From: a virus
Lineage: Duplodnaviria; Caudoviricetes
Virus record (IMG/VR): IMGVR_UViG_3300037466_002533
Span: 1-64,000 of that record
Direction: 5' to 3' (one strand)
DNA length: 64,000 bases
The notes below the pieces were generated by a model. The model worked only from the letters and a program-made list of their open reading frames with translations. It was not told the origin of the DNA and did no database searches. Numbering within the stretch: the stretch's first letter is position 1; every line of letters starts with the position of its first letter. This document shows, in pieces, positions 37,429-52,053 of this stretch. The position numbers were made by a program, and so were the translations under genes.

Positions 37429-38586
37429 CTAGTCGCCCTTGATGTTGACGATCTGTCTGAGGACATATCTCACCTCCACCAGATCAGAAGAGTCATTCAT
37501 AACTACTTCGACGTCCTTGTAGGCGTCCGGGTGCTCGTCCAGGAAGGCATCGGACTCGCCCCAAGCGATGCCCTCCATGCGGGCGTCCAGGTCCTCCCGG
37601 GTGAATCTGGACTTGGCCTTCGAGCGGGAGTACTCCCTACCGGCACCGTGCGGTGCGGAATTGAAGGACGACTCGTTGCCAAGCCCCTGGACCACGTAAG
37701 AACGAGTTCCCATGGATCCGGGGATCAACCCCCACTGTCCGGGCTCTGCGTTGATCGCGCCCTTGCGGGACAGCCACACACCATCGCCCAACTTCTCGGT
37801 GTAGTTGTGATGGCAAGAGATGTCCTGACGCCACTGCACGAACTCCCGCCCCATGAACAGGGACAGGGCGAAGGATACCCGGCCCATCATCTCGATCCGG
37901 TTGAGTAGAGCGAACTGCTGTGCCCAGTTGAGAGCTTCGATATAGGAGTCGAACTCGCTGGTTCCCTCCTCCAGATAGGCCAGGTCGCGATTCGGCAGTT
38001 TCTTGCCGTCGCAGAGCTTCTGAGCCACCTCGATGTGCTTCTGGGCCAGCCTGTTGCCCACCCCACGGGATCCGGAGTGCAGGAACATCCACACCCGGTC
38101 ATCCTCGTCCAGGCTGACCTCGATGAAGTGGTTGCCCGAACCCAGGGATCCAAGCTGCAGCCGCCAATTGGGAGATACCTCCTCGGCCTGCTCGATGCCG
38201 GGGAGGGACTCCAGGGCGAAGATCCGGGAGGATTTGGCGCGGCCGGAGGGGCTGTTGTACTTCCCCGCCGACAGCGGGATATCCTTCGAGATAGCTGCAT
38301 GCAGGACACGCAGATCGCCTGCGGCCAGCAGGTCATCGCGCCTGAACTGGGTCAACACCGCGTTCATGCCGCAGCCGATGTCCACACCGACGGCGGCAGG
38401 CATGATCGCGCCCATGGTCGGGATGACGGAGCCTACGGTGGCACCCTTGCCCAGATGGGCATCCGGCATCAGAGCCAGCCAGGGCTGTACGAACGGCATG
38501 GAGGCGGTCTGGAAGGCCTGCTCCAGCGTCTGCGGCGCGATGATCGACGCCCAGTTGAGCAGCTTGTCGTTCAGGATCTGCATCAT
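37429..38586 (-). CDS. rtcB: RtcB RNA 2',3'-cyclic phosphate/5'-OH ligase
   Basis: MPDAHLGKG, VGVDIGCG, LGSGNHF, HSGSRG, HHNY, PGSMG, HGAGR, AYKD. Confidence 0.95.
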   Translation of the reverse strand: MMQILNDKLLNWASIIAPQTLEQAFQTASMPFVQPWLALMPDAHLGKGATVGSVIPTMGAIMPAAVGVDIGCGMNAVLTQFRRDDLLAAGDLRVLHAAISKDIPLSAGKYNSPSGRAKSSRIFALESLPGIEQAEEVSPNWRLQLGSLGSGNHFIEVSLDEDDRVWMFLHSGSRGVGNRLAQKHIEVAQKLCDGKKLPNRDLAYLEEGTSEFDSYIEALNWAQQFALLNRIEMMGRVSFALSLFMGREFVQWRQDISCHHNYTEKLGDGVWLSRKGAINAEPGQWGLIPGSMGTRSYVVQGLGNESSFNSAPHGAGREYSRSKAKSRFTREDLDARMEGIAWGESDAFLDEHPDAYKDVEVVMNDSSDLVEVRYVLRQIVNIKGD

Positions 38587-38610: not shown

Positions 38611-38668
38611 AAGCAAAAGGCCCCTGCGCATTTGAGCATCGTGGAGAGGCTTGGCAGGGGCTCGGTTG

Positions 38669-43719: not shown

Positions 43720-44031
43720 CTAGGCGTGAGACAGCTCGTGAGCCTCCAGGTCGGTGGGGTCCAGGTCGACCCGGGCCTTCTGTTTGCCCCCGGACCAGCT
43801 CAACACGATGCGGATGGGGCACTCCACCTGAGCCCCGCACGTCAGACAGTTGATGAGCACGAAAGTCTTTGGTGCACGGTCCATCTCGGGCTTCAGAACC
43901 AGGGCGTAGTGGGCGGCGAAGATGCTGCGATAGTCCTGGTTGTCCTCGGACTTGCTCTTACGCCACTGCGACCCTGCCCAGAACGCCAGGACGGACAAGA
44001 GGACCATGAACACGGCTAGCGTCGGGATCAA
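43720..44031 (-). CDS. membrane-anchored protein with CLTC motif
   Basis: N-terminal hydrophobic helix. Confidence 0.6.
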   Translation of the reverse strand: MIPTLAVFMVLLSVLAFWAGSQWRKSKSEDNQDYRSIFAAHYALVLKPEMDRAPKTFVLINCLTCGAQVECPIRIVLSWSGGKQKARVDLDPTDLEAHELSHA

Positions 44032-44038
44032 AGCGATA

Positions 44039-44086
44039 CCCCCTCGGCTACAGGATTCCTATTTATTAGGCCTGCAGCCGAGGGGG
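44039..44086. terminator. strong hairpin downstream of the Ro gene
   Basis: CCCCCTCGGCT(A)CAGG...CCTG(C)AGCCGAGGGGG. Confidence 0.5.
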
Positions 44087-44139
44087 CTCGTATTAGCTGG
44101 TACGGCTATTGTACCCTCATACGGTACGATAGCCGACGA

Positions 44140-45801
44140 TCAGGACTCCCAGGGCCAGCTTCCGAATCCAGCCGCCTCGATGTTCTGCATCATGGCGAAC
44201 GCCGAGTCGGTCAAGCCTCCGACCGCGTAGAAGTTCCCGCGACCCTGCGGCGCATGAGCCGCCTGGTACCCGGCGACGTTGAACGTGAAGGTCGTGACAT
44301 CGGCGGGAACCACGTCCGGCAGGGACTTGCCGTAGTAGTCGGCCTGCTCGTCGGTGACGATCACCAACCGGTTGACGGCGCCTCGGAACCGACGCAGCAA
44401 CGTCTCGGCGACCTGAACGGTCCTGGTGCCTCCGGCGATGGGTAGCTCCTTGTAGAACCTCTGAATGTTGGACAGCAGCGAGGCGCTGTAGTCCACCGTG
44501 AACGGATCAGACCGGTCGTCGTAGGCGAACACCACGGCGTTCTCCGCACGCAGCGCCAGGGCCAGGCCGAAGGCCACTGCGTTGTCGTACCGGCTCACGG
44601 TTGAGTTGCCCGAAAGGAGGTCACTCATCGATCCGGAACGGTCGATCATCACCAGGGTGTCACCGGACAGCTCCGGCACCGAGCGCAGGGAGATGTCCAG
44701 GGCCTTGGACAGTGCTGGCTCCCACAGCTTGCGGTACTTGGGCTGTACGGCCTCCGACACAGTCCGGAGTCCGTAGTACCCGGCGGGCTGCGGAGCGACG
44801 GCGCGGTACGCGGACAGGAACCGCAGCGGGAGCTGCCTGGACGACAGCACCGCCTCCTCATCAGCGATCTTCTCGGCCACGAACTTGGCGTAGGAGTCCG
44901 AGATTCCGGCCTTTGCGAAGTTGCGGAGGTTGCGGATCAGCGCCATGTACCCCATGTTCGGGATCACGGACTCCCAGAAGGTCGCGGTCAACTCACCACC
45001 GAACCAGGATGCCAGGGACTCCCAGGTGTGTCCGGCGAGCCGGGCGGCATCCGGGTGATCCTTCAGGAACGCCTCACGTTCCTCCCGAGGGATGTCCGCC
45101 ATGACCTGGCGGTCGACCAGCGTCGTTAATCCCTGGTATCTGGATAGGTCGACGTTGTCGTATCGGCGATCCTGCGCGTAGGCGAAAACCGCTGCCTTGT
45201 AGGGGCTGTCGGTAGTGTCGACCTGAGACAGGGAGATGACGTCGCCGAAACGGATTGCGGCGCCCTGAGAGTCGTACTTCAGGACCGACTTCTCGTTGTA
45301 CAGGGCCTTCGCGGCATCACCCAGGGCGCGCTTGAACCACTTGGGCAACGGCTTGCCGTAGTTGGCCAGCCAATAGCCCAGGGCCTCGCTCGGCTCGTCG
45401 GCGCGCTGCAGCACGGAGCGTAGCACGGCACGAGGGGTGAGGCTGTCGAACGGAGCACGCCCGCTGACCGTCCGGCCATACTCGATGGCGCCGGTGATCG
45501 CGGCGGTGCGGATGTTCCCGCTGGTGCGCAGCCAGGAGAGGAAGTTGGCCACCCACTCCGGGTCGGCCTTTGCCACGGAGCGAATCAACTCGACGTAGCG
45601 GCTGTCGCGAGCCTCGGCGGACTCGTAATAGGTATCCTGGCCGGTGAAGTTGGTGACCCCCAGGAGGAACAGGGCGGACTTCTCGGCGTACGCGAATCCC
45701 TTGCCGCCGTTGCCGGTCGGCACGTCGGACTTCGGGGACGCGGTCAGCACCGAGGTGTTGCCACTCGGCGCGGTGCGCACGTTCTTGGTGAAGCGAGCCA
45801 C
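44140..45801 (-). CDS. rsr: Ro60/TROVE-domain RNA-binding protein with vWA domain
   Basis: GNIRTAAI, YDSQG, GYMALIRNLRN, SRQLPLRFLSAY TROVE motifs; IDRSGSMS and IVTDEQ vWA MIDAS; start reset to GTG 45801 after GGAGG. Confidence 0.92.
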   Translation of the reverse strand: MARFTKNVRTAPSGNTSVLTASPKSDVPTGNGGKGFAYAEKSALFLLGVTNFTGQDTYYESAEARDSRYVELIRSVAKADPEWVANFLSWLRTSGNIRTAAITGAIEYGRTVSGRAPFDSLTPRAVLRSVLQRADEPSEALGYWLANYGKPLPKWFKRALGDAAKALYNEKSVLKYDSQGAAIRFGDVISLSQVDTTDSPYKAAVFAYAQDRRYDNVDLSRYQGLTTLVDRQVMADIPREEREAFLKDHPDAARLAGHTWESLASWFGGELTATFWESVIPNMGYMALIRNLRNFAKAGISDSYAKFVAEKIADEEAVLSSRQLPLRFLSAYRAVAPQPAGYYGLRTVSEAVQPKYRKLWEPALSKALDISLRSVPELSGDTLVMIDRSGSMSDLLSGNSTVSRYDNAVAFGLALALRAENAVVFAYDDRSDPFTVDYSASLLSNIQRFYKELPIAGGTRTVQVAETLLRRFRGAVNRLVIVTDEQADYYGKSLPDVVPADVTTFTFNVAGYQAAHAPQGRGNFYAVGGLTDSAFAMMQNIEAAGFGSWPWES

Positions 45802-45821
45802 GATGTTCCTCCACTGGGTTG

Positions 45822-45894
45822 GGTTCCGATATAAGGGTGGGATCGGTTGGGTTTCCATTATGAGTGAAGTAACCGAACCCAGCACACCGGAACC
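45822..45894 (-). ncRNA. minimal Y RNA (YrlB-like, no tRNA domain)
   Basis: GGTTCC GGTGTG ... GTTACTTC ... TTATATC GGAACC; same terminal motifs as the two adjacent YrlA. Confidence 0.7.
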
Positions 45895-45906
45895 GATGTC
45901 ACGAGT

Positions 45907-45924
45907 AGTGTAGCACAATCTTTT
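45907..45924 (-). promoter_or_regulatory. AAAAGATT-N4-TANNNT promoter for minimal Y RNA and rsr
   Basis: minus strand AAAAGATT GTGC TACACT. Confidence 0.55.
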
Positions 45925-45932
45925 TGCATGGC

Positions 45933-46071
45933 GGACAGATATAGAGGCGGCCTTGGTCTTTCGTCAGCCCGCTCTACCACTTGAGCTACCAGCCCCGAAA
46001 TGGAACTGGACGGGATTCGAACCCGCAACCTAGCTGGTTCATAGAAGTATCCATGACCTGCGCACCTGTCC
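45933..46071 (-). ncRNA. yrlA: YrlA-type Y RNA 1
   Basis: GGACA GGTGCG...GATACTTC...GCGGG TTCGAAT CCCGT CCAGTTCC ATTTC GGGGCTGG TA GCTC AAGTGGTA GAGC...TATATC TGTCC. Confidence 0.88.
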
Positions 46072-46083
46072 TACCAGGTAGCT

Positions 46084-46214
46084 GAGCAGATATAAGTCGC
46101 ACGAGGAAATGTTAGCGCTCTGCCATTGAGCTACCGCCCCATTGGAGCGGCCGGGACTCGAACCCGGATCTCTCTGTTCATAATCAGAAGTAACCTCGAA
46201 CTACGCACCTGCTC
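46084..46214 (-). ncRNA. yrlA: YrlA-type Y RNA 2
   Basis: GAGCA GGTGCG...GTTACTTC...CCGGG TTCGAGT CCCGG CCGCTCC AAT GGGGCGG TA GCTC AATGGCA GAGC...TTATATC TGCTC. Confidence 0.88.
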
Positions 46215-46301
46215 TGGTGAGGATGGAGGGATTCGAACCCCCTAAGCCAATGGCGGCGCGGTTACGGCGCGCTACGACCACTCCATCGTCGTCGCATCCT
46301 C
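46215..46301 (-). tRNA. tRNA-Tyr(GTA), CCA encoded
   Basis: long variable arm, loop CC-GTA-AC, A73. Confidence 0.82.
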
Positions 46302-46451
46302 AGATTCACCGCTTGACCTGCCATACCGTTGCGCAATACGAAGGCAGTATCTTCATGTCTCCTCAAACCAGTCGGGGACGACACTTCTGGCCCTGCCCTG
46401 GCTGACATTGACTGGCTAGTTATCGCAGGCCGCAGGCGGTGAAGGCCATAG

Positions 46452-46524
46452 CACGGGTGACAAGATTCGAACTCGCAACCAACGACTTTGGAGATCGCTG
46501 CTCTCCCAATTGAGCTACACCCGT
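46452..46524 (-). tRNA. tRNA-Trp(CCA)
   Basis: cloverleaf, loop CT-CCA-AA, G73. Confidence 0.92.
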
Positions 46525-46553
46525 ATATGTTCTCTGTTGAGTTGTCTTGTGAC

Positions 46554-46570
46554 AGCCTACGCTATCTCTT
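46554..46570 (-). promoter_or_regulatory. AAGAGATA-N3-TANNNT promoter
   Basis: minus strand AAGAGATA GCG TAGGCT. Confidence 0.5.
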
Positions 46571-46754
46571 ACCTGTCCGCAACCAGCTTTTCGAGCTGGC
46601 TCGGGTCGGTGGCCTTCGAGTGATTGTCTCCCCGGTACCGGACGAACACCCAGGTGTTGTTGACCGAGGTGATGACCCCGTCCTCCCTGGAGCCGTTGCC
46701 GTTCTTGTACACAACTCCGGCGCCCAGGAGGCTCTTGGCCTCTTCGATCGTCAT
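46569..46754 (-). CDS. hypothetical protein (61 aa)
   Basis: GGAGGAG RBS. Confidence 0.65.
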   Translation of the reverse strand: MTIEEAKSLLGAGVVYKNGNGSREDGVITSVNNTWVFVRYRGDNHSKATDPSQLEKLVADR

Positions 46755-46778
46755 AGCTCCTCCATGCGATCTTCCTAG

Positions 46779-46853
46779 CGATTCGTACGGGATTCGAACC
46801 CGTGTTCTCCACCGTGACAGGGTGGCGCTTTCGGCCAGCTAAGCTAACGAACC
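46779..46853 (-). tRNA. tRNA-Asp(GTC)
   Basis: cloverleaf, loop CT-GTC-AC, G73. Confidence 0.93.
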
Positions 46854-46854
46854 T

Positions 46855-46928
46855 TGGGGTGGCCGGACGGTAATGATCCGTCTTCCCCGCAGTCACAGTG
46901 CAGTGCATTACCTTTATGCTACGGCCAC
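46855..46928 (-). tRNA. tRNA-His(GTG), T loop ATCATTA, CCA encoded
   Basis: loop CT-GTG-AC, C73; encoded -1 base is T. Confidence 0.82.
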
Positions 46929-46930
46929 AG

Positions 46931-47002
46931 TACCGGTACCCTGAGTCGAACAGGGGCACGGAGGGTATGAGTCTCCTGCTCTCGCCACTGAGCTATACCG
47001 GC
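46931..47002 (-). tRNA. tRNA-Met or Ile2 (CAT)
   Basis: cloverleaf, loop CT-CAT-AC. Confidence 0.85.
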
Positions 47003-47036
47003 ATATGTAGTTGTAATTTCCTGCGACTTAATTGCG

Positions 47037-47109
47037 CTGCCCCCGAAGGATTCGAACCTCCACCCAAGACATTCAGAATGTCCGACACTGCCGATTATGC
47101 TAGAGGGCA
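47037..47109 (-). tRNA. tRNA-Gln(CTG)
   Basis: U1-A72, loop TT-CTG-AA, G73. Confidence 0.88.
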
Positions 47110-47125
47110 CTGTTCAGCTATGTAG

Positions 47126-47199
47126 TGGCGGGGGCCAGATTCGAACTGACGACCTTCAGCTTATGAGGCTGACGAGCTACCGAGCTGCTCTACCCCGCA
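47126..47199 (-). tRNA. tRNA-Met(CAT), initiator-like
   Basis: U1-C72 mismatch and fMet-type D arm GAGCAGCTCGGTAGCTC. Confidence 0.85.
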
Positions 47200-47364
47200 T
47201 TGATCTGGAGCCTTCCTTTACAGGGCGCTCCAGCATACCCCGGCCGCAGTGCGGTGATCTTCCGCAGTAACGGACTTTGATCGATGGCTTCGTCCCCAGA
47301 TGCCTTTTCGCTAAGTGGCACCATGATATGGGGATAACCCAACCATCGATCCTCTTTGGTGTGG

Positions 47365-47374
47365 ATTCTACACA
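47365..47374 (-). promoter_or_regulatory. extended -10 element
   Basis: minus strand TGTG TAGAAT upstream of the structured spacer at 47205-47345. Confidence 0.4.
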
Positions 47375-47391
47375 GTTCGAACCCTAACCAG

Positions 47392-47460
47392 TGGAGGATA
47401 CCGGAATCGAACCGGTCTAGGGACCGTGCAAAGGTCCCGTGATTTCCCAGATCATCCCCC
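47392..47460 (-). tRNA. tRNA-Ala(TGC), reduced D arm
   Basis: G3-U70, GGGACC-TTTGCAC-GGTCCC, 69 nt. Confidence 0.78.
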
Positions 47461-47563
47461 GGGGAACAGCTATTAAGTTAGGAACGTCACCACATGCCTA
47501 CTAGGATAGCCAACATCAAAATGGATCTCAGCGGATCATCCTAAGCACTATTCAGTTGTCGAG

Positions 47564-47634
47564 CACCCCATGGCGGTTACGATCCGCCTCCGCCTGACTG
47601 AGAATCAGGAAGACTGCCATTATCCGAATGGGGC
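47564..47634 (-). tRNA. tRNA-Glu(CTC), T loop ATCGTAA
   Basis: loop TT-CTC-AG. Confidence 0.8.
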
Positions 47635-47808
47635 TTGTTGTGCCGGTCGAGCGGGCCTGGTAGGCGGCCAACCACCGGCACTAGGGTAGGAATCCGGACC
47701 CTATCCGGCCCTTCCCCCAGCCACTGCCGCCCCGGCTACCACCCCGGTTTAGCATTTCCATGGGAGCAGTTTATGTCGAAAGACGACAGTTCCATACTCC
47801 AGGGAACG

Positions 47809-47881
47809 TACACCCGGCAGGACTCGAACCTGCGATAAGCTGTGTGTAAAACAGCCGCCTTAGCCGCTAGACGACGGGTGC
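47809..47881 (-). tRNA. tRNA-Val(TAC)
   Basis: cloverleaf, loop TT-TAC-AC, A73. Confidence 0.9.
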
Positions 47882-47889
47882 AAGATTTG

Positions 47890-48135
47890 ATGAGCTACTA
47901 AGCCTGGCCGGGTACCCTCGGCAACTGTCGGCTGTTCGCTCACTGGATCGCTGAGCCTCACCGCTCCCATCCGGCTCTCCAGACCCTGGTGAGGGGCCTC
48001 GGAGCTAACGTCTCTGTGAAGTTAGGTGCCCTGTTAGCCGGGGCCAGGCCCGGGACCGTTGTTACCCATTGTCCCGGAGCAGGGGCGGAGATTATGTGTG
48101 ACCCTCACCCTCTCCGCTAGGTGAGGCACGTCTTG
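47890..48135 (-). ncRNA. unassigned pseudoknotted structured RNA heading the tRNA array
   Basis: H-type pseudoknot CCTCACC/GGTGAGG with GCGGAGA/TCTCCGC; CCGGGAC hairpin; GCCTGGCC/GGCCAGGC closing a multibranch domain. Confidence 0.55.
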
Positions 48136-48147
48136 GTGATGTCTGAG

Positions 48148-48165
48148 ACTCTACACTAAAAGATA
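48148..48165 (-). promoter_or_regulatory. promoter at head of RNA island
   Basis: minus strand TATCTTTT AGTG TAGAGT. Confidence 0.45.
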
Positions 48166-48330
48166 CGGTGGCGCAAGTGGTTTTTGAGGAGGGGATGGCT
48201 GACCCGGACTATCTATCGCCGACCACCTTCGCCCGGACCCATTGCCGACGGCTCGGCCTTCCCCTTGGTGCGTCTTTGAAGTTGTCCCTATATCTTAGAC
48301 TATGGACCCTGTCTTGTCCATACTATCTCT

Positions 48331-48795
48331 TCAGTGGTTGTCGTCCAGGCGGGCCTGCAGCTCCTCCGCCGTGATGTACCCCTTCCTGAGGGACGTTAGG
48401 CCCGACTTGACCCTCCATCGATACACGGCGAAGTCCACCGTGTCGACCGGCGTCACCACCAGTTCGGCATCGTTGAACTTGACCGACATGGTGTAGCCGG
48501 TCTCCTGGGTCTCCCGGAGCATCTCCTTGGCCAGGTCATTCACGTATCGGCCGAGCGCGACGTGGCCCGGAACGGTCTTGGTGATCCCGTTGGGCTTGAC
48601 CGGCTCCTTGGCAGTGATCTCCACTCCGGCCTGGTGTGCGGCGAAGGCTCGGTTCCTCCGAACGGAGATGTCCTCATCGCCGACCTGCGGCCCAGGCATG
48701 ATTCTGGCGCCGCAGGTGCAAAGGTCCGGCGTACTACCGAGCATGCCCAAGGCTGCCCGCTGGTGTTGTTCCAGCACGTCTCTGACGCTACTCAT
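48331..48795 (-). CDS. hypothetical protein (154 aa)
   Basis: ORF with CTCG. Confidence 0.6.
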   Translation of the reverse strand: MSSVRDVLEQHQRAALGMLGSTPDLCTCGARIMPGPQVGDEDISVRRNRAFAAHQAGVEITAKEPVKPNGITKTVPGHVALGRYVNDLAKEMLRETQETGYTMSVKFNDAELVVTPVDTVDFAVYRWRVKSGLTSLRKGYITAEELQARLDDNH

Positions 48796-48796
48796 C

Positions 48797-49267
48797 TCAC
48801 TCCTCCGTTCCGAAGATGTCGACGCCGTTCTCCATCATGATGATCTTGAGGATGAAGGACGCCTCTATGCCCATCATCTTCTCCACCAGGGACAGCTCCT
48901 CCTGGCAGAACCGCCAGTCGTGATTGCCGGGGGTGCGGGCGTGAGCCAGCTCGTGCAGCACGACCAGCTCGCGCATGGCCCAGCGGTCCAGCAGTGGGAT
49001 GGCGATGGTGTTGGTGTCCCGTTCATAGTGGGACTTGGTCTGACCTCGGCGCTCGCGCACCTTCGGCGGATCCATGCCCAGGATCTTGCAGACCTGTGCC
49101 AGGTAGGCCTCGATGTTGGCTAGCTGGCCGAAGTTCCGCTCCATCGGAACGATGATCTTGGAGCCAGCTATCTCAATGATCGGGTAGTCGTACTGCCGCT
49201 TCAGGATCCGGCCGAACTCGTCCTCGGCGTCGTAGACGCGCTGCCGCTGGCCGTCGCGCACGCTCAT
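48797..49267 (-). CDS. TIGR04338-family HEXXH metallohydrolase (Rv0185-like)
   Basis: RDGQRQRVYDAE N-terminus, AHY-like KSHY, AIP, RWAMRELVVLHELAH. Confidence 0.8.
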   Translation of the reverse strand: MSVRDGQRQRVYDAEDEFGRILKRQYDYPIIEIAGSKIIVPMERNFGQLANIEAYLAQVCKILGMDPPKVRERRGQTKSHYERDTNTIAIPLLDRWAMRELVVLHELAHARTPGNHDWRFCQEELSLVEKMMGIEASFILKIIMMENGVDIFGTEE

Positions 49268-49431
49268 TCGTTACCTTCCAGATAGGTAGCGATGAGCGCC
49301 GTATCGGCGGTGTGGTACTCCACACCCGCTTCCTCAGCAGCCTCGATCGCTGCCATGCGCTTCCTCGGGGTTGCCTTGTTCCAGTCATCCAACATCTGCC
49401 TGATGATCTCGCGGATCTCCTGAACGGTCAT
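49264..49431 (-). CDS. small hypothetical protein (55 aa)
   Basis: start reset to ATG after promoter. Confidence 0.5.
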   Translation of the reverse strand: MTVQEIREIIRQMLDDWNKATPRKRMAAIEAAEEAGVEYHTADTALIATYLEGNE

Positions 49432-49438
49432 GATGGTG

Positions 49439-49459
49439 ATTCTACCCTTCCAAAAGATA
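49439..49459 (-). promoter_or_regulatory. promoter with TATCTTTT box, 7-nt spacer and TAGAAT
   Basis: minus strand TATCTTTT GGAAGGG TAGAAT. Confidence 0.5.
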
Positions 49460-49594
49460 GATGTCCACCGGACTCGCGAAGGTCCCGCTCGCGGCATCCC
49501 CATCCCCGGCACAGCCACACATCGACCAAGCGCCCGATCAGGGTTTTGATCACGTAGTGCCGTTGCCACCGTCCGCAGTACGGACAGGTGGGGA

Positions 49595-49792
49595 TCACTG
49601 CTCCTTCTTGGTGCCGGGCAAGCCGTCCTGGACATAGCCGCAGAACAGCATGCCGGACTCGTTGCGGTAGTAGAACATCCCCCGGGCTACGCGGGTGACC
49701 ATGCAGATGTCGGGGCGGGCGGTCCCGGCCTTCGGGCTGCCGACGATCATGCTCTTGTGGGCGAACCGGTCGCCGCGCTTGATGTTGTTCAC
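49595..49792 (-). CDS. small hypothetical protein (65 aa)
   Basis: GTGA overlap with upstream gene. Confidence 0.5.
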   Translation of the reverse strand: MNNIKRGDRFAHKSMIVGSPKAGTARPDICMVTRVARGMFYYRNESGMLFCGYVQDGLPGTKKEQ

Positions 49793-50034
49793 AGACCAGC
49801 ACTTCCCATCACGATGAGTGCGACGATGATGATAGCGATCGTCAGCAGGAACAGCGACCCCACGACGGCGTTCTCCGCCGTGGTGTGCCGGGGCTGGGGA
49901 GGGTACTGCCAGCAGCAGTCGCACAGGATGCCGTCATCGGTCGTCCAGTACTGCTGACCCTCCGGGACCGGCCGGTGGCATGTGTCGCAGTCCACCGACC
50001 GGCCCAGGACAGCCGTGAGACGCCTGGCGGTCAT
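49789..50034 (-). CDS. zinc-binding membrane protein (81 aa)
   Basis: CDTC...CDCC and C-terminal TM helix. Confidence 0.6.
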   Translation of the reverse strand: MTARRLTAVLGRSVDCDTCHRPVPEGQQYWTTDDGILCDCCWQYPPQPRHTTAENAVVGSLFLLTIAIIIVALIVMGSAGL

Positions 50035-50882
50035 ACCAGGGCCTTCCGGGCACCGCCGAGGGCCGCCGAGCCCCCCAAACGCGCACGGCGGCCTGCCGAG
50101 TCACCAGCGCCGGTGGCGTGGGACGAATGCGAACCGGCCTGGCTGCCCTTCCAGGTGCCACGGGCCTTGCTGTGGGTCTTATAGAAGTCCTGGACCTCCA
50201 GCTCGGTGGCGCGGATCGCCAGGGCGGTCGAGGTGGACCCCTCAGCCACTCGACCCTCCAGATAGTCCTGCTCGTTCCGTAGCGCCTCGTCATCCAGCGC
50301 CTGCTGCTCGGCTTGCTTCTTGGCCTCCGTCAGGCGGGTCCCGATGCGGTTGGCGTAGGCCTCCTGGAAGTTGATCCGGGCGGTCCGGCCGGACACCGGG
50401 AAGTGGCCCCAGTCGCGGTAGGATCCCCAGGCTTCGTCGTGATACGTGCCGATGCGCAAGACCGTCTCGTTCTTGTACTCGCCCTTGCGGATGTAGGCGT
50501 CGGATGCCGCCACCATCTGCGGGAGCACGGAGGCGTAGATCGCCTCGGTCAGCTCGATGTCCTCGGCGAAACCGAAGGCGATCACGTAGGTGGAGTTGTG
50601 GGCGATGTTGAACTTGACGTTGTTCGCCCTGCCGATGGCCAGGAACAGGTCGCAGTAGGTGCCCAGGCCCTTCTTGCCAGCATCGCCGATGCTGATGGTG
50701 CGCTGGATCGGCGTCTGGCGCCGCTCTTTCTGGGCGGTGATCTGCCGGGCCTTCGCCAGGTCGATGGAGTAGGTGGTGGCCAGGCGCTGCGCGGCCTGCA
50801 GGTAGGCGTCGGCTTCGTGCTCGTTCTTGGTGCTCTCGGCCTTGCGCAGCAGGTTGCCAATCTTGACCAGGATGTCTGACAT
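50031..50882 (-). CDS. DUF2786-domain protein (Rv0184-like)
   Basis: ILVKIGNLLRKAESTKNEHEADAYLQAAQRLATTYSID; start reset to ATG 50882. Confidence 0.82.
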   Translation of the reverse strand: MSDILVKIGNLLRKAESTKNEHEADAYLQAAQRLATTYSIDLAKARQITAQKERRQTPIQRTISIGDAGKKGLGTYCDLFLAIGRANNVKFNIAHNSTYVIAFGFAEDIELTEAIYASVLPQMVAASDAYIRKGEYKNETVLRIGTYHDEAWGSYRDWGHFPVSGRTARINFQEAYANRIGTRLTEAKKQAEQQALDDEALRNEQDYLEGRVAEGSTSTALAIRATELEVQDFYKTHSKARGTWKGSQAGSHSSHATGAGDSAGRRARLGGSAALGGARKALV

Positions 50883-50943
50883 GGGGCTGTGACCCTCCAT
50901 GGGACGTGCCGGTCGACTGGGTGCCACCGGCGGTACAGGGACA

Positions 50944-50965
50944 ATCATACCACATGGAAAAGATA
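50944..50965 (-). promoter_or_regulatory. promoter with TATCTTTT box, 8-nt spacer and TATGAT
   Basis: minus strand TATCTTTT CCATGTGG TATGAT. Confidence 0.6.
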
Positions 50966-51002
50966 GTCTGGCAAGACTCGCTGATCAGGATGGGTTGTGC
51001 CC

Positions 51003-51024
51003 TATCTTTTTGGTGTGGTAGGAT
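51003..51024 (+). promoter_or_regulatory. divergent promoter with TATCTTTT box, 8-nt spacer and TAGGAT
   Basis: TATCTTTT TGGTGTGG TAGGAT. Confidence 0.6.
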
Positions 51025-51063
51025 GGATGCTGTCAGGGTCACTGCCACCCCGGGAGACACCAG

Positions 51064-51375
51064 ATGACCACCACCGTGACCGGCCAGCTCGTCTTCGAGA
51101 TCGCCGCGTGCGACGGCCACTTCCGCTACAACGTTACCTTCCAGGGGCCGGACGCCTCGGCGCAGGCGATGACCTACATCGAGCGCCAGGAAAAGAAGCA
51201 CCAGCGCTCGGACGGCCTGGGCCAGATCGTGTGGGACCTCGACTTCGACCGTTCCGACGAGTCGCTGGTCTCCGAGGAGCTGTCCTCCTTCCTGTGGCCG
51301 TCTTGCGAGCACGGGCTGAGCCTGCGGCTCTGCGCCGGTCCGGGCCACTACCCGATCTATCACCCCTACAACTGA
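51064..51375 (+). CDS. hypothetical protein (CEHG...CAGPGHYP)
   Basis: GGGAG RBS, phage codon usage. Confidence 0.65.
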   Translation: MTTTVTGQLVFEIAACDGHFRYNVTFQGPDASAQAMTYIERQEKKHQRSDGLGQIVWDLDFDRSDESLVSEELSSFLWPSCEHGLSLRLCAGPGHYPIYHPYN

Positions 51376-51417
51376 TCCCGCCCGTCCCGATTCCCCACCT
51401 GCACGAGGAGAAGAGTC

Positions 51418-52053
51418 ATGAAGTTCGACCCGATTGCCCGAACCCTGACCCTGGAGTCCACCGACTGTCGGAACTGCTCCGGCGGCCGAGCCGGGGCAGG
51501 ACGTCAGTTCGCCCGGAAGACCTGCCTGGACTGCGGCGGCTCCGGCAAGGGCAAGCGCGGCAAGCGTGGCGGCTGCAACAAGTGCATCGGCCAGGGCACG
51601 GTCATCGACTTCGACAACACGGTGCTCTGCCCGGTCTGCCAGGGCGACTTCCAGGACGCCTCGTTCGAGAACTGGTGCGATACCGCACCGTCGGCGGCCA
51701 TGGCCACTCTGGAAGTCCAGGTCGTCCGGCAGAACCGGGAGACCACCTGGAACGAGCAGTTCCTCGGGGTCAACTGCTTCTGGTCCTGCACCGACTACGG
51801 CACCCAGTGGGACAAGGGCGAGGCGGGTGATCGCGAGCTGGCGGTGTCGGTGTACAACGAACTGTGCAACAGCCGTGTGCAGGCCGTCAAGCTGTGGCCG
51901 CGCAGCCAGTACGACTCGAAGGCCACCACCATGCCGATGCCGGAGCGGGCGTACGTGATCGTCAGCCGCAGCGGCTACTCGGTGCGTCCGGAGGTCCCGC
52001 GTGTGACCGGCGCGTTGCCCCGGAACACCTACGACGCGATCATCTCGGAGTGA
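51418..52053 (+). CDS. protein with DnaJ-type CxxCxGxG zinc finger
   Basis: CRNCSGG, CLDCGGSG, CNKCIGQG, CPVCQG. Confidence 0.7.
   Translation: MKFDPIARTLTLESTDCRNCSGGRAGAGRQFARKTCLDCGGSGKGKRGKRGGCNKCIGQGTVIDFDNTVLCPVCQGDFQDASFENWCDTAPSAAMATLEVQVVRQNRETTWNEQFLGVNCFWSCTDYGTQWDKGEAGDRELAVSVYNELCNSRVQAVKLWPRSQYDSKATTMPMPERAYVIVSRSGYSVRPEVPRVTGALPRNTYDAIISE

Follow-up and report, generated by a model that had tools for sequence, protein, structure and literature searches.

A single-instance, lineage-specific leader with clustered hairpins at the head of a phage tRNA array

The GOLLD and ROOL RNAs, large and ornate molecules that combine pseudoknots with multi-branch domains and form families with covariation, are often encoded beside phage tRNAs. 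The tRNA cluster of phage T4 reportedly includes two stable RNAs that are not tRNAs, species 1 and 2, of unknown function, which are said to be co-transcribed with the tRNAs and released by tRNA-processing enzymes. In rRNA operons, a leader-trailer helix brackets the 16S rRNA (PMC10250234), in a role comparable to that considered here for a phage leader. The genes of bacterial Y RNAs are located no more than about 2 kb from rsr, and homology searches miss some of them; a Ro-binding motif, GNCGAA(N0-1)G, lies near the Y RNA 5′ end (PMC4201824).

Here we analysed the non-coding stretch that heads a tRNA array in an uncultivated phage (Duplodnaviria; Caudoviricetes) from soil. The window, meaning the whole stretch of DNA that was analysed, comprises the first 64 kb (64,000 nucleotides) of an 88.7-kb IMG/VR viral contig (IMGVR_UViG_3300037466_002533), the completeness of which is estimated at 59%. 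Its G+C content is about 60%, and the likely genes that were checked all lie on the minus strand. The phage is probably an actinobacterial one, as two similarities point to such a host. Among GTDB species genomes, that of Marinactinospora rubrisoli (NZ_JBHTBH010000012.1; 42% identity) alone encodes an Rsr protein with exact 8-residue words in common with Ro60 of the phage, and a DUF2786 gene of the phage has a 72.6% DNA match to a Mycobacterium phage. ARAGORN called 37 co-oriented tRNAs on the minus strand, from 47881 to 38668, in an array of 9.5 kb. A TROVE/Ro60 gene (rsr; 44140–45918, minus strand; TROVE, 4.6e-16) lies within the tRNA block, and an RtcB ligase gene (rtcB; 37429–38586, minus strand) belongs to the same block. 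The first tRNA of the array is tRNA-Val(UAC) (47808–47881, minus strand), which was found by ARAGORN and scored 57.3 bits with the Rfam tRNA model; its 5′ end sets the 3′ end of the leader. On the other side, the ORF list places an ORFan gene of 154 aa (48331–48795, minus strand), which adjoins a 156-aa ORF (48797–49267, minus strand) featuring a HELAH (HExxH-like) motif. This latter ORF had no Pfam match and no relative in IMG/VR.

A preliminary description of this DNA had proposed an RNA of about 245 nt at 47890–48135 on the minus strand, starting just after a promoter at 48148–48165. The stretch turned out to be the 3′ 245 nt of a longer non-coding gap, which extends over 449 nt from the stop codon of the ORFan to tRNA-Val (48330–47882, minus strand) according to the ORF list. 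The absence of a credible ORF was borne out, the leader ORFs having GC3 values of 0.59–0.69, as compared with 0.82–0.89 in six real phage genes. Two small ORFs, of 31 aa (GC3 0.69) and 36 aa (GC3 0.59), were rejected for their low GC3; one of them enters tRNA-Val. The proposed promoter was less convincing. It consists of TTGCGC (48176–48171), a 17-nt spacer and TAGAGT (48153–48148), a weak site (48148–48176, minus strand) that fits just 7 of the 12 consensus positions and was absent from our scan list, and its −10-like sequence, GTGTAGAGTC, recurs as GTGTAGAATC at 47373–47364, a count within chance. The scan did list a promoter-like site directly after the upstream stop codon (TGGACA-17-TAAGAT; 48292–48320, minus strand), which agrees with the consensus at 9 of 12 positions. 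Because of this site at 48320–48292, the RNA could start about 140 nt further upstream, or it could be read-through from the upstream gene. Of the gaps in the region, 48142–48330 alone is A+T-richer, with a GC of 0.53.

All of the helices named in the preliminary description are present on the minus strand at the positions that it gave. The two at the 5′ side, S1 and S2 (48085–48126, minus strand), are perfect 7-bp helices: CCTCACC (48126–48120) pairs with GGTGAGG (48109–48103), and GCGGAGA (48117–48111) with TCTCCGC (48091–48085), in the interleaved order of an H-type pseudoknot with loops of 2, 1 and 11 nt. S1 and S2 form either this pseudoknot, which is sterically sound, or two mutually exclusive hairpins. 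Their stacking energies are −15.4 and −16.0 kcal/mol, respectively, as against −15.5 kcal/mol for the best nested local fold; the −31.4 kcal/mol of stacking in the pseudoknot would plausibly outweigh a typical pseudoknot penalty. Further downstream, a CCGGGAC/GTCCCGG hairpin with a 14-nt loop (48077–48050, minus strand) is the best-supported single helix, with a pair probability of 0.94, and the only local energy outlier (z −3.08; 1 of 200 shuffles). Its loop contains GGGTA, and the distal TACCC to which this had been proposed to pair lies at 47914–47910. It is followed by a small CUAAC/GUUAG hairpin (48005–48025, minus strand; pair probability 0.91) and by a second CCTCACC/GGTGAGG hairpin with a 25-nt loop (47994–47956, minus strand). 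Both copies of the CCTCACC/GGTGAGG hairpin have GGAGAG in the loop and a GGTGAGG(G/C)TCA tail. When the two copies are paired crosswise, two 8-bp helices result, each one pair longer than the local 7-bp helix, and one of them (A1:B2) appears in the MFE fold with a probability of 0.57. Finally, the 8-bp GCCTGGCC/GGCCAGGC helix (48049–48042 with 47909–47902) closes a 150-nt fold (47902–48049, minus strand; z −1.31) and is missing from the MFE of the wider, 507-nt context.

To what extent these pairings exceed chance depends on the feature considered. The folding energy of the leader is ordinary: its z value is −0.94 over 264 nt and −1.06 on the opposite strand, and the full 449-nt gap gives −0.28. 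The 7+7 H-type pseudoknot is the only case in both strands of the window (128 kb); dinucleotide-shuffled windows contain 0.3 such pseudoknots on average, and 19% of them hold at least one. The pseudoknot alone is not more than chance. The cluster of hairpins and the duplicated hairpin, on the other hand, are. A search restricted to perfect Watson-Crick stems found four local hairpins of at least 7 bp in the 260-nt leader, where 0.47 were expected and none of 300 shuffles did as well, and the hairpin count was at expectation in ten other spacers of the array and in three genes. The window has two copies of the CCTCACC...GGTGAGG hairpin where 0.02 are expected; both are in the leader, and the rest of the 88.7-kb genome has none.

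These figures bear on the simplest alternative, in which the leader is a neutral spacer: a local duplication of a hairpin-bearing segment in G+C-rich DNA would have left inverted repeats devoid of function, and the transcript would be discarded after the RNase P cut. Folding energies like those of shuffled sequence on either strand and a pseudoknot within chance agree with this account, and the loop and tail motifs shared by the two CCTCACC/GGTGAGG copies are what a duplication would leave; so, too, does the absence of the element from all relatives, whose leaders are short (see below). A duplication, however, explains only two of the four perfect hairpins, and accounts neither for the other two nor for four blocks of complementarity in the spacer after tRNA-Val, and the other long spacers of the array are free of such clustering. 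We consider the neutral account somewhat unlikely.

A reading at the level of DNA has also to be weighed, since all four stems are perfectly Watson-Crick paired and both strands fold equally well. The inverted repeats could bind a phage or host protein, as an operator or a roadblock immediately downstream of the promoter, or be part of a replication or packaging site. Their position next to the promoter-like sites in the A+T-richer gap suits such a role, and the cumulative GC skew is lowest at about 48–57 kb. The skew minimum is broad, however, in a window whose genes all lie on one strand, and the perfection of the stems is partly built in by a search that took perfect Watson-Crick stems only. 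Moreover, the half-site copies are spaced by 10 bp in one case and 25 bp in the other, a poor fit to one dimeric binder, and the motif occurs nowhere else in the genome. Sites acting as DNA seem improbable to us.

The leader is complementary to the spacer between tRNA-Val and tRNA-Glu (173 nt; 47635–47807, minus strand; hereafter referred to as the trailer). Four blocks of 11–13 nt, with no more than one mismatch each, were found on the minus strand. Three of them, 47791–47781 with 47933–47923, 47770–47760 with 47970–47960 and 47741–47729 with 48044–48032, are nested around tRNA-Val, and the fourth, 47737–47727 with 48088–48078, falls outside this nested set. By comparison, 0.44 blocks were expected and none of 1000 shuffles had four, in a test that was chosen after the list of repeats had been seen. 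Among the 120 pairs of spacers in the array, the leader and the trailer are the densest in such blocks, the native background rate giving about 0.3; after correction for the 120 pairs, this post hoc signal retains a P of about 0.04 only. The 507-nt segment from the leader to the trailer folds with −216.7 kcal/mol (z −1.64) on the transcribed strand and with −202.5 kcal/mol (z −0.22) on the opposite strand. Its MFE structure draws a leader-trailer helix with a probability of 0.5–0.6, formed by pairs other than those of the four blocks. Two further ideas about the relation between leader and trailer were rejected. For a decayed inverted duplication, the best local alignment was a single 13-mer (P 0.16), with no extended alignment; for a duplex over the whole length of both, the energy had a z of −1.97 only and was no outlier per nucleotide.

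One of the closest parallels to this arrangement is the leader of rRNA operons. By analogy, the phage leader would be promoter-proximal, untranslated and structured, would head an operon of stable RNAs and would pair with the spacer behind the first mature RNA, which a long-range helix would thus bracket; its removal by processing is proposed here. The two differ in that the phage leader would bracket a tRNA rather than 16S rRNA, and in that its blocks are 11–13 nt with mismatches rather than a long RNase III duplex. No boxA was found in the leader with the E. coli core and up to 3 mismatches, for which the counts across the window are those of chance.

We searched for relatives of the leader by sequence, pattern, synteny and structure. 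In agreement with the preliminary description, it belongs to no recognised family: a search of Rfam 15 returned nothing at gathering score in 47890–48135, and the sole match there at E≤10 was bxd_1, at 12.1 bits against a cut-off of 75. In INPHARED, blastn with 47600–48400 and with 44001–52000 retrieved tRNAs and one unrelated gene only. The upstream ORFan had no tblastn match in phage records and only itself as a match among 5.8 billion proteins, and three neighbouring proteins had no relatives in IMG/VR. An exact 26-nt pattern of the pseudoknot found no match in IMG/VR, and a pseudoknot-core pattern was not found in GTDB genomes; 12 IMG/VR matches to a degenerate pattern of the hairpin module were dismissed, as they look like chance and are without nearby tRNAs or wider similarity. 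Synteny around Rsr yielded loci at 27–48% protein identity from IMG/VR, JGI metagenomes and GTDB genomes. Searches with the 449-nt gap by nhmmer and blastn gave nothing in the Rsr-synteny loci of IMG/VR and JGI metagenomes (best Rsr identity 48%), and neither did BLAST against five whole related phage records. A covariance model (R1; 181 nt and 31 pairs, built on 47950–48130) matched only itself in whole phage records and 21 loci. The array heads of more distant relatives and of Streptomyces phage Karimac have leaders of only 65–80 nt.

Three studies of soil or rhizosphere metagenomes supplied DNA runs, three in all, with pieces identical to the window (46000–50000); the long and exact pieces match it letter for letter, and one of the runs is probably the source sample. 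As every other occurrence is thus an unchanged copy of this phage, there is no variation in which to count compensatory changes. The sequencing runs listed as holding the stretch comprise three of DNA and none of RNA. We therefore describe the element as a single-instance, lineage-specific structured leader; being a single instance, it cannot be claimed as a new class of RNA.

This outcome weighs on the interpretation given in the preliminary description, namely a new class of phage ncRNA, an RNA switch or a nuclease block that protects the tRNA precursor. In the form considered here, the stretch would be a free-standing structured ncRNA, or a ligand- or factor-sensing switch, with a 5′ H-type pseudoknot, in which the exchange between local (7-bp) and crosswise (8-bp) pairings would control the array or act in trans. 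The sound geometry and predicted stacking energy of the pseudoknot, the extra pair in both crosswise helices and the non-random clustering of the hairpins are what such an RNA would have. Against it stand the single instance without a family, the failure of sequence, pattern and covariance model alike to find a homolog, and the lack of strand asymmetry in the leader itself, while for a switch neither a terminator nor a start codon follows that could serve as a platform. The leader shares with the H-type pseudoknot riboswitches (preQ1, SAM-II, guanidine-III and fluoride) and with the put antiterminator RNA of phage HK022 a compact pseudoknot or hairpin pair just downstream of a promoter, a putative one here; it differs from the riboswitches in having no match to a riboswitch family of Rfam and no expression platform. 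With GOLLD and ROOL it has in common its occurrence in a phage, beside tRNAs, and a predicted pseudoknot and multi-branch domain. Unlike these RNAs, both of which we take to be in Rfam 15, it had no match at gathering score and none to such a family at E≤10, and it is, at 245–450 nt, shorter than they are and a single instance. The species 1 and 2 RNAs of T4 bear no sequence relation to it and occupy another position in their cluster, and T4 is unrelated to this high-G+C phage. A free-standing RNA or switch is, in our judgement, distinctly unlikely.

The proximity of the Ro60 gene raises one more alternative, namely that the leader, which lies about 2 kb upstream of rsr, gives rise to a YrlB-like RNA that the phage Ro60 (Rsr) binds in the manner of a Y RNA. 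Like the Y RNAs of the YrlA and YrlB types, it has a Ro60 gene in its neighbourhood and shares its locus with RtcB, rsr and rtcB being members of the same array, and the distance between the start of rsr (45918) and the 3′ end of the leader (47882) is within about 2 kb. It is unlike them in lacking a tRNA-like module and, over 48135–47890, the Ro-binding motif GNCGAA(N0-1)G; a regular-expression scan of 48330–47882 found one match in the gap, at 48233–48226, which is upstream of the putative promoter. The stretch has no YrlA match at E≤10, its 245 nt compare with only 114 positions, or roughly half as many, in the YrlA model of Rfam, and YrlA-like modules exist elsewhere, directly upstream of rsr. 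We regard a Y RNA in the leader as very improbable.

Several other RNA elements were noted in the array. The YrlA-like modules are a pair of sub-threshold matches (45966–46034 and 46117–46170, minus strand; 37.1 and 36.0 bits; E about 1e-6), with a mimic of the T-arm, acceptor and D-arm, and ARAGORN calls part of one of them a tRNA-Arg (46002–46080). In the 363-nt spacer 47200–47562, the segment 47341–47416 (minus strand) has a T-arm-like sequence, GGTTCGATTCC, at 47413–47403 and is matched weakly by two tmRNA models, cyano_tmRNA (E 0.19) and permuted-tmRNA (E 9.4); this segment could represent a tRNA-like element in degenerate or permuted form. Between tRNA-Gln, the last of the tRNAs, and the start codon of rtcB is a strong match to the abiF RNA motif of Rfam (38622–38658, minus strand; E 5.6e-9), which scored 51 bits where the cut-off is 37, and no Abi_2/AbiF gene was found in the 88.7-kb record. 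A preprint treats this motif as part of how RNA regulates an AbiF system that a phage encodes in C. difficile (bioRxiv 10.1101/2025.04.15.648962). The orphan copy may be an antitoxin mimic and serve as an anti-defence decoy; alternatively, the motif may have a broader function beside RNA-repair genes.

Having weighed these alternatives, we tentatively favour, with a probability of roughly 0.45, a 5′ leader that belongs to the tRNA precursor, is specific to this lineage and acts in cis; RNase P would remove it, and it may pair with the trailer around tRNA-Val. The stretch would be the promoter-proximal, untranslated 5′ leader, or external transcribed spacer, of the array precursor, transcribed from a nearby promoter. 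From the general way in which tRNA 5′ ends are made, RNase P would cut at the 5′ end of tRNA-Val and release the leader. The hairpins, built around the duplicated CCUCACC-GGAGAG-GGUGAGG module, most likely act in cis with the trailer complementarity, such that tRNA-Val would be enclosed between leader and trailer in one folded domain, about 500 nt long. This domain might guide or time processing and buffer the 5′ end of the precursor against decay. The non-random cluster of hairpins, the duplicated module and the complementarity of the tRNA-Val trailer argue for some selected role rather than a random spacer, and they suit a leader acting in cis no less well than a free-standing RNA. The site itself, between the ORFan and the first of the 37 tRNAs, with non-coding GC3 and promoter-like sites upstream, points the same way. 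Other observations speak against a cis-acting leader. Its folding energy is ordinary and equal on both strands, so that the four perfect stems need not have originated at the level of RNA; the leaders of the relatives, 65–80 nt in length, indicate that a long leader is unnecessary for a phage tRNA array; and the MFE fold joins leader and trailer by other pairs than the blocks, for which the corrected P is about 0.04 in a post hoc test.

A more elaborate version of the cis-acting leader can be envisaged, in which the approximately 500 nt from the promoter region to tRNA-Glu constitute one phage-specific RNA domain, with the pseudoknot and the interchangeable CCUCACC/GGUGAGG helices caging or releasing tRNA-Val. 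Whether the first tRNA matures, or whether the 9.5-kb array is transcribed at all, would then hinge on a factor from the co-encoded module of Ro60, Y RNA and RtcB, or on attack by a host nuclease. We would give this scheme a slim chance of being correct.

For the present, the value of the leader is that of a marked candidate, to be taken up when relatives or the host emerge, and the surrounding locus, with its Ro60, Y RNAs, RtcB and orphan abiF RNA, is more interesting than the leader itself. If the leader does bracket and gate tRNA-Val, it would represent leader-trailer control of the rRNA style applied to a phage tRNA array, and would open a way to study the expression of untranslated arrays of such great length in phages.
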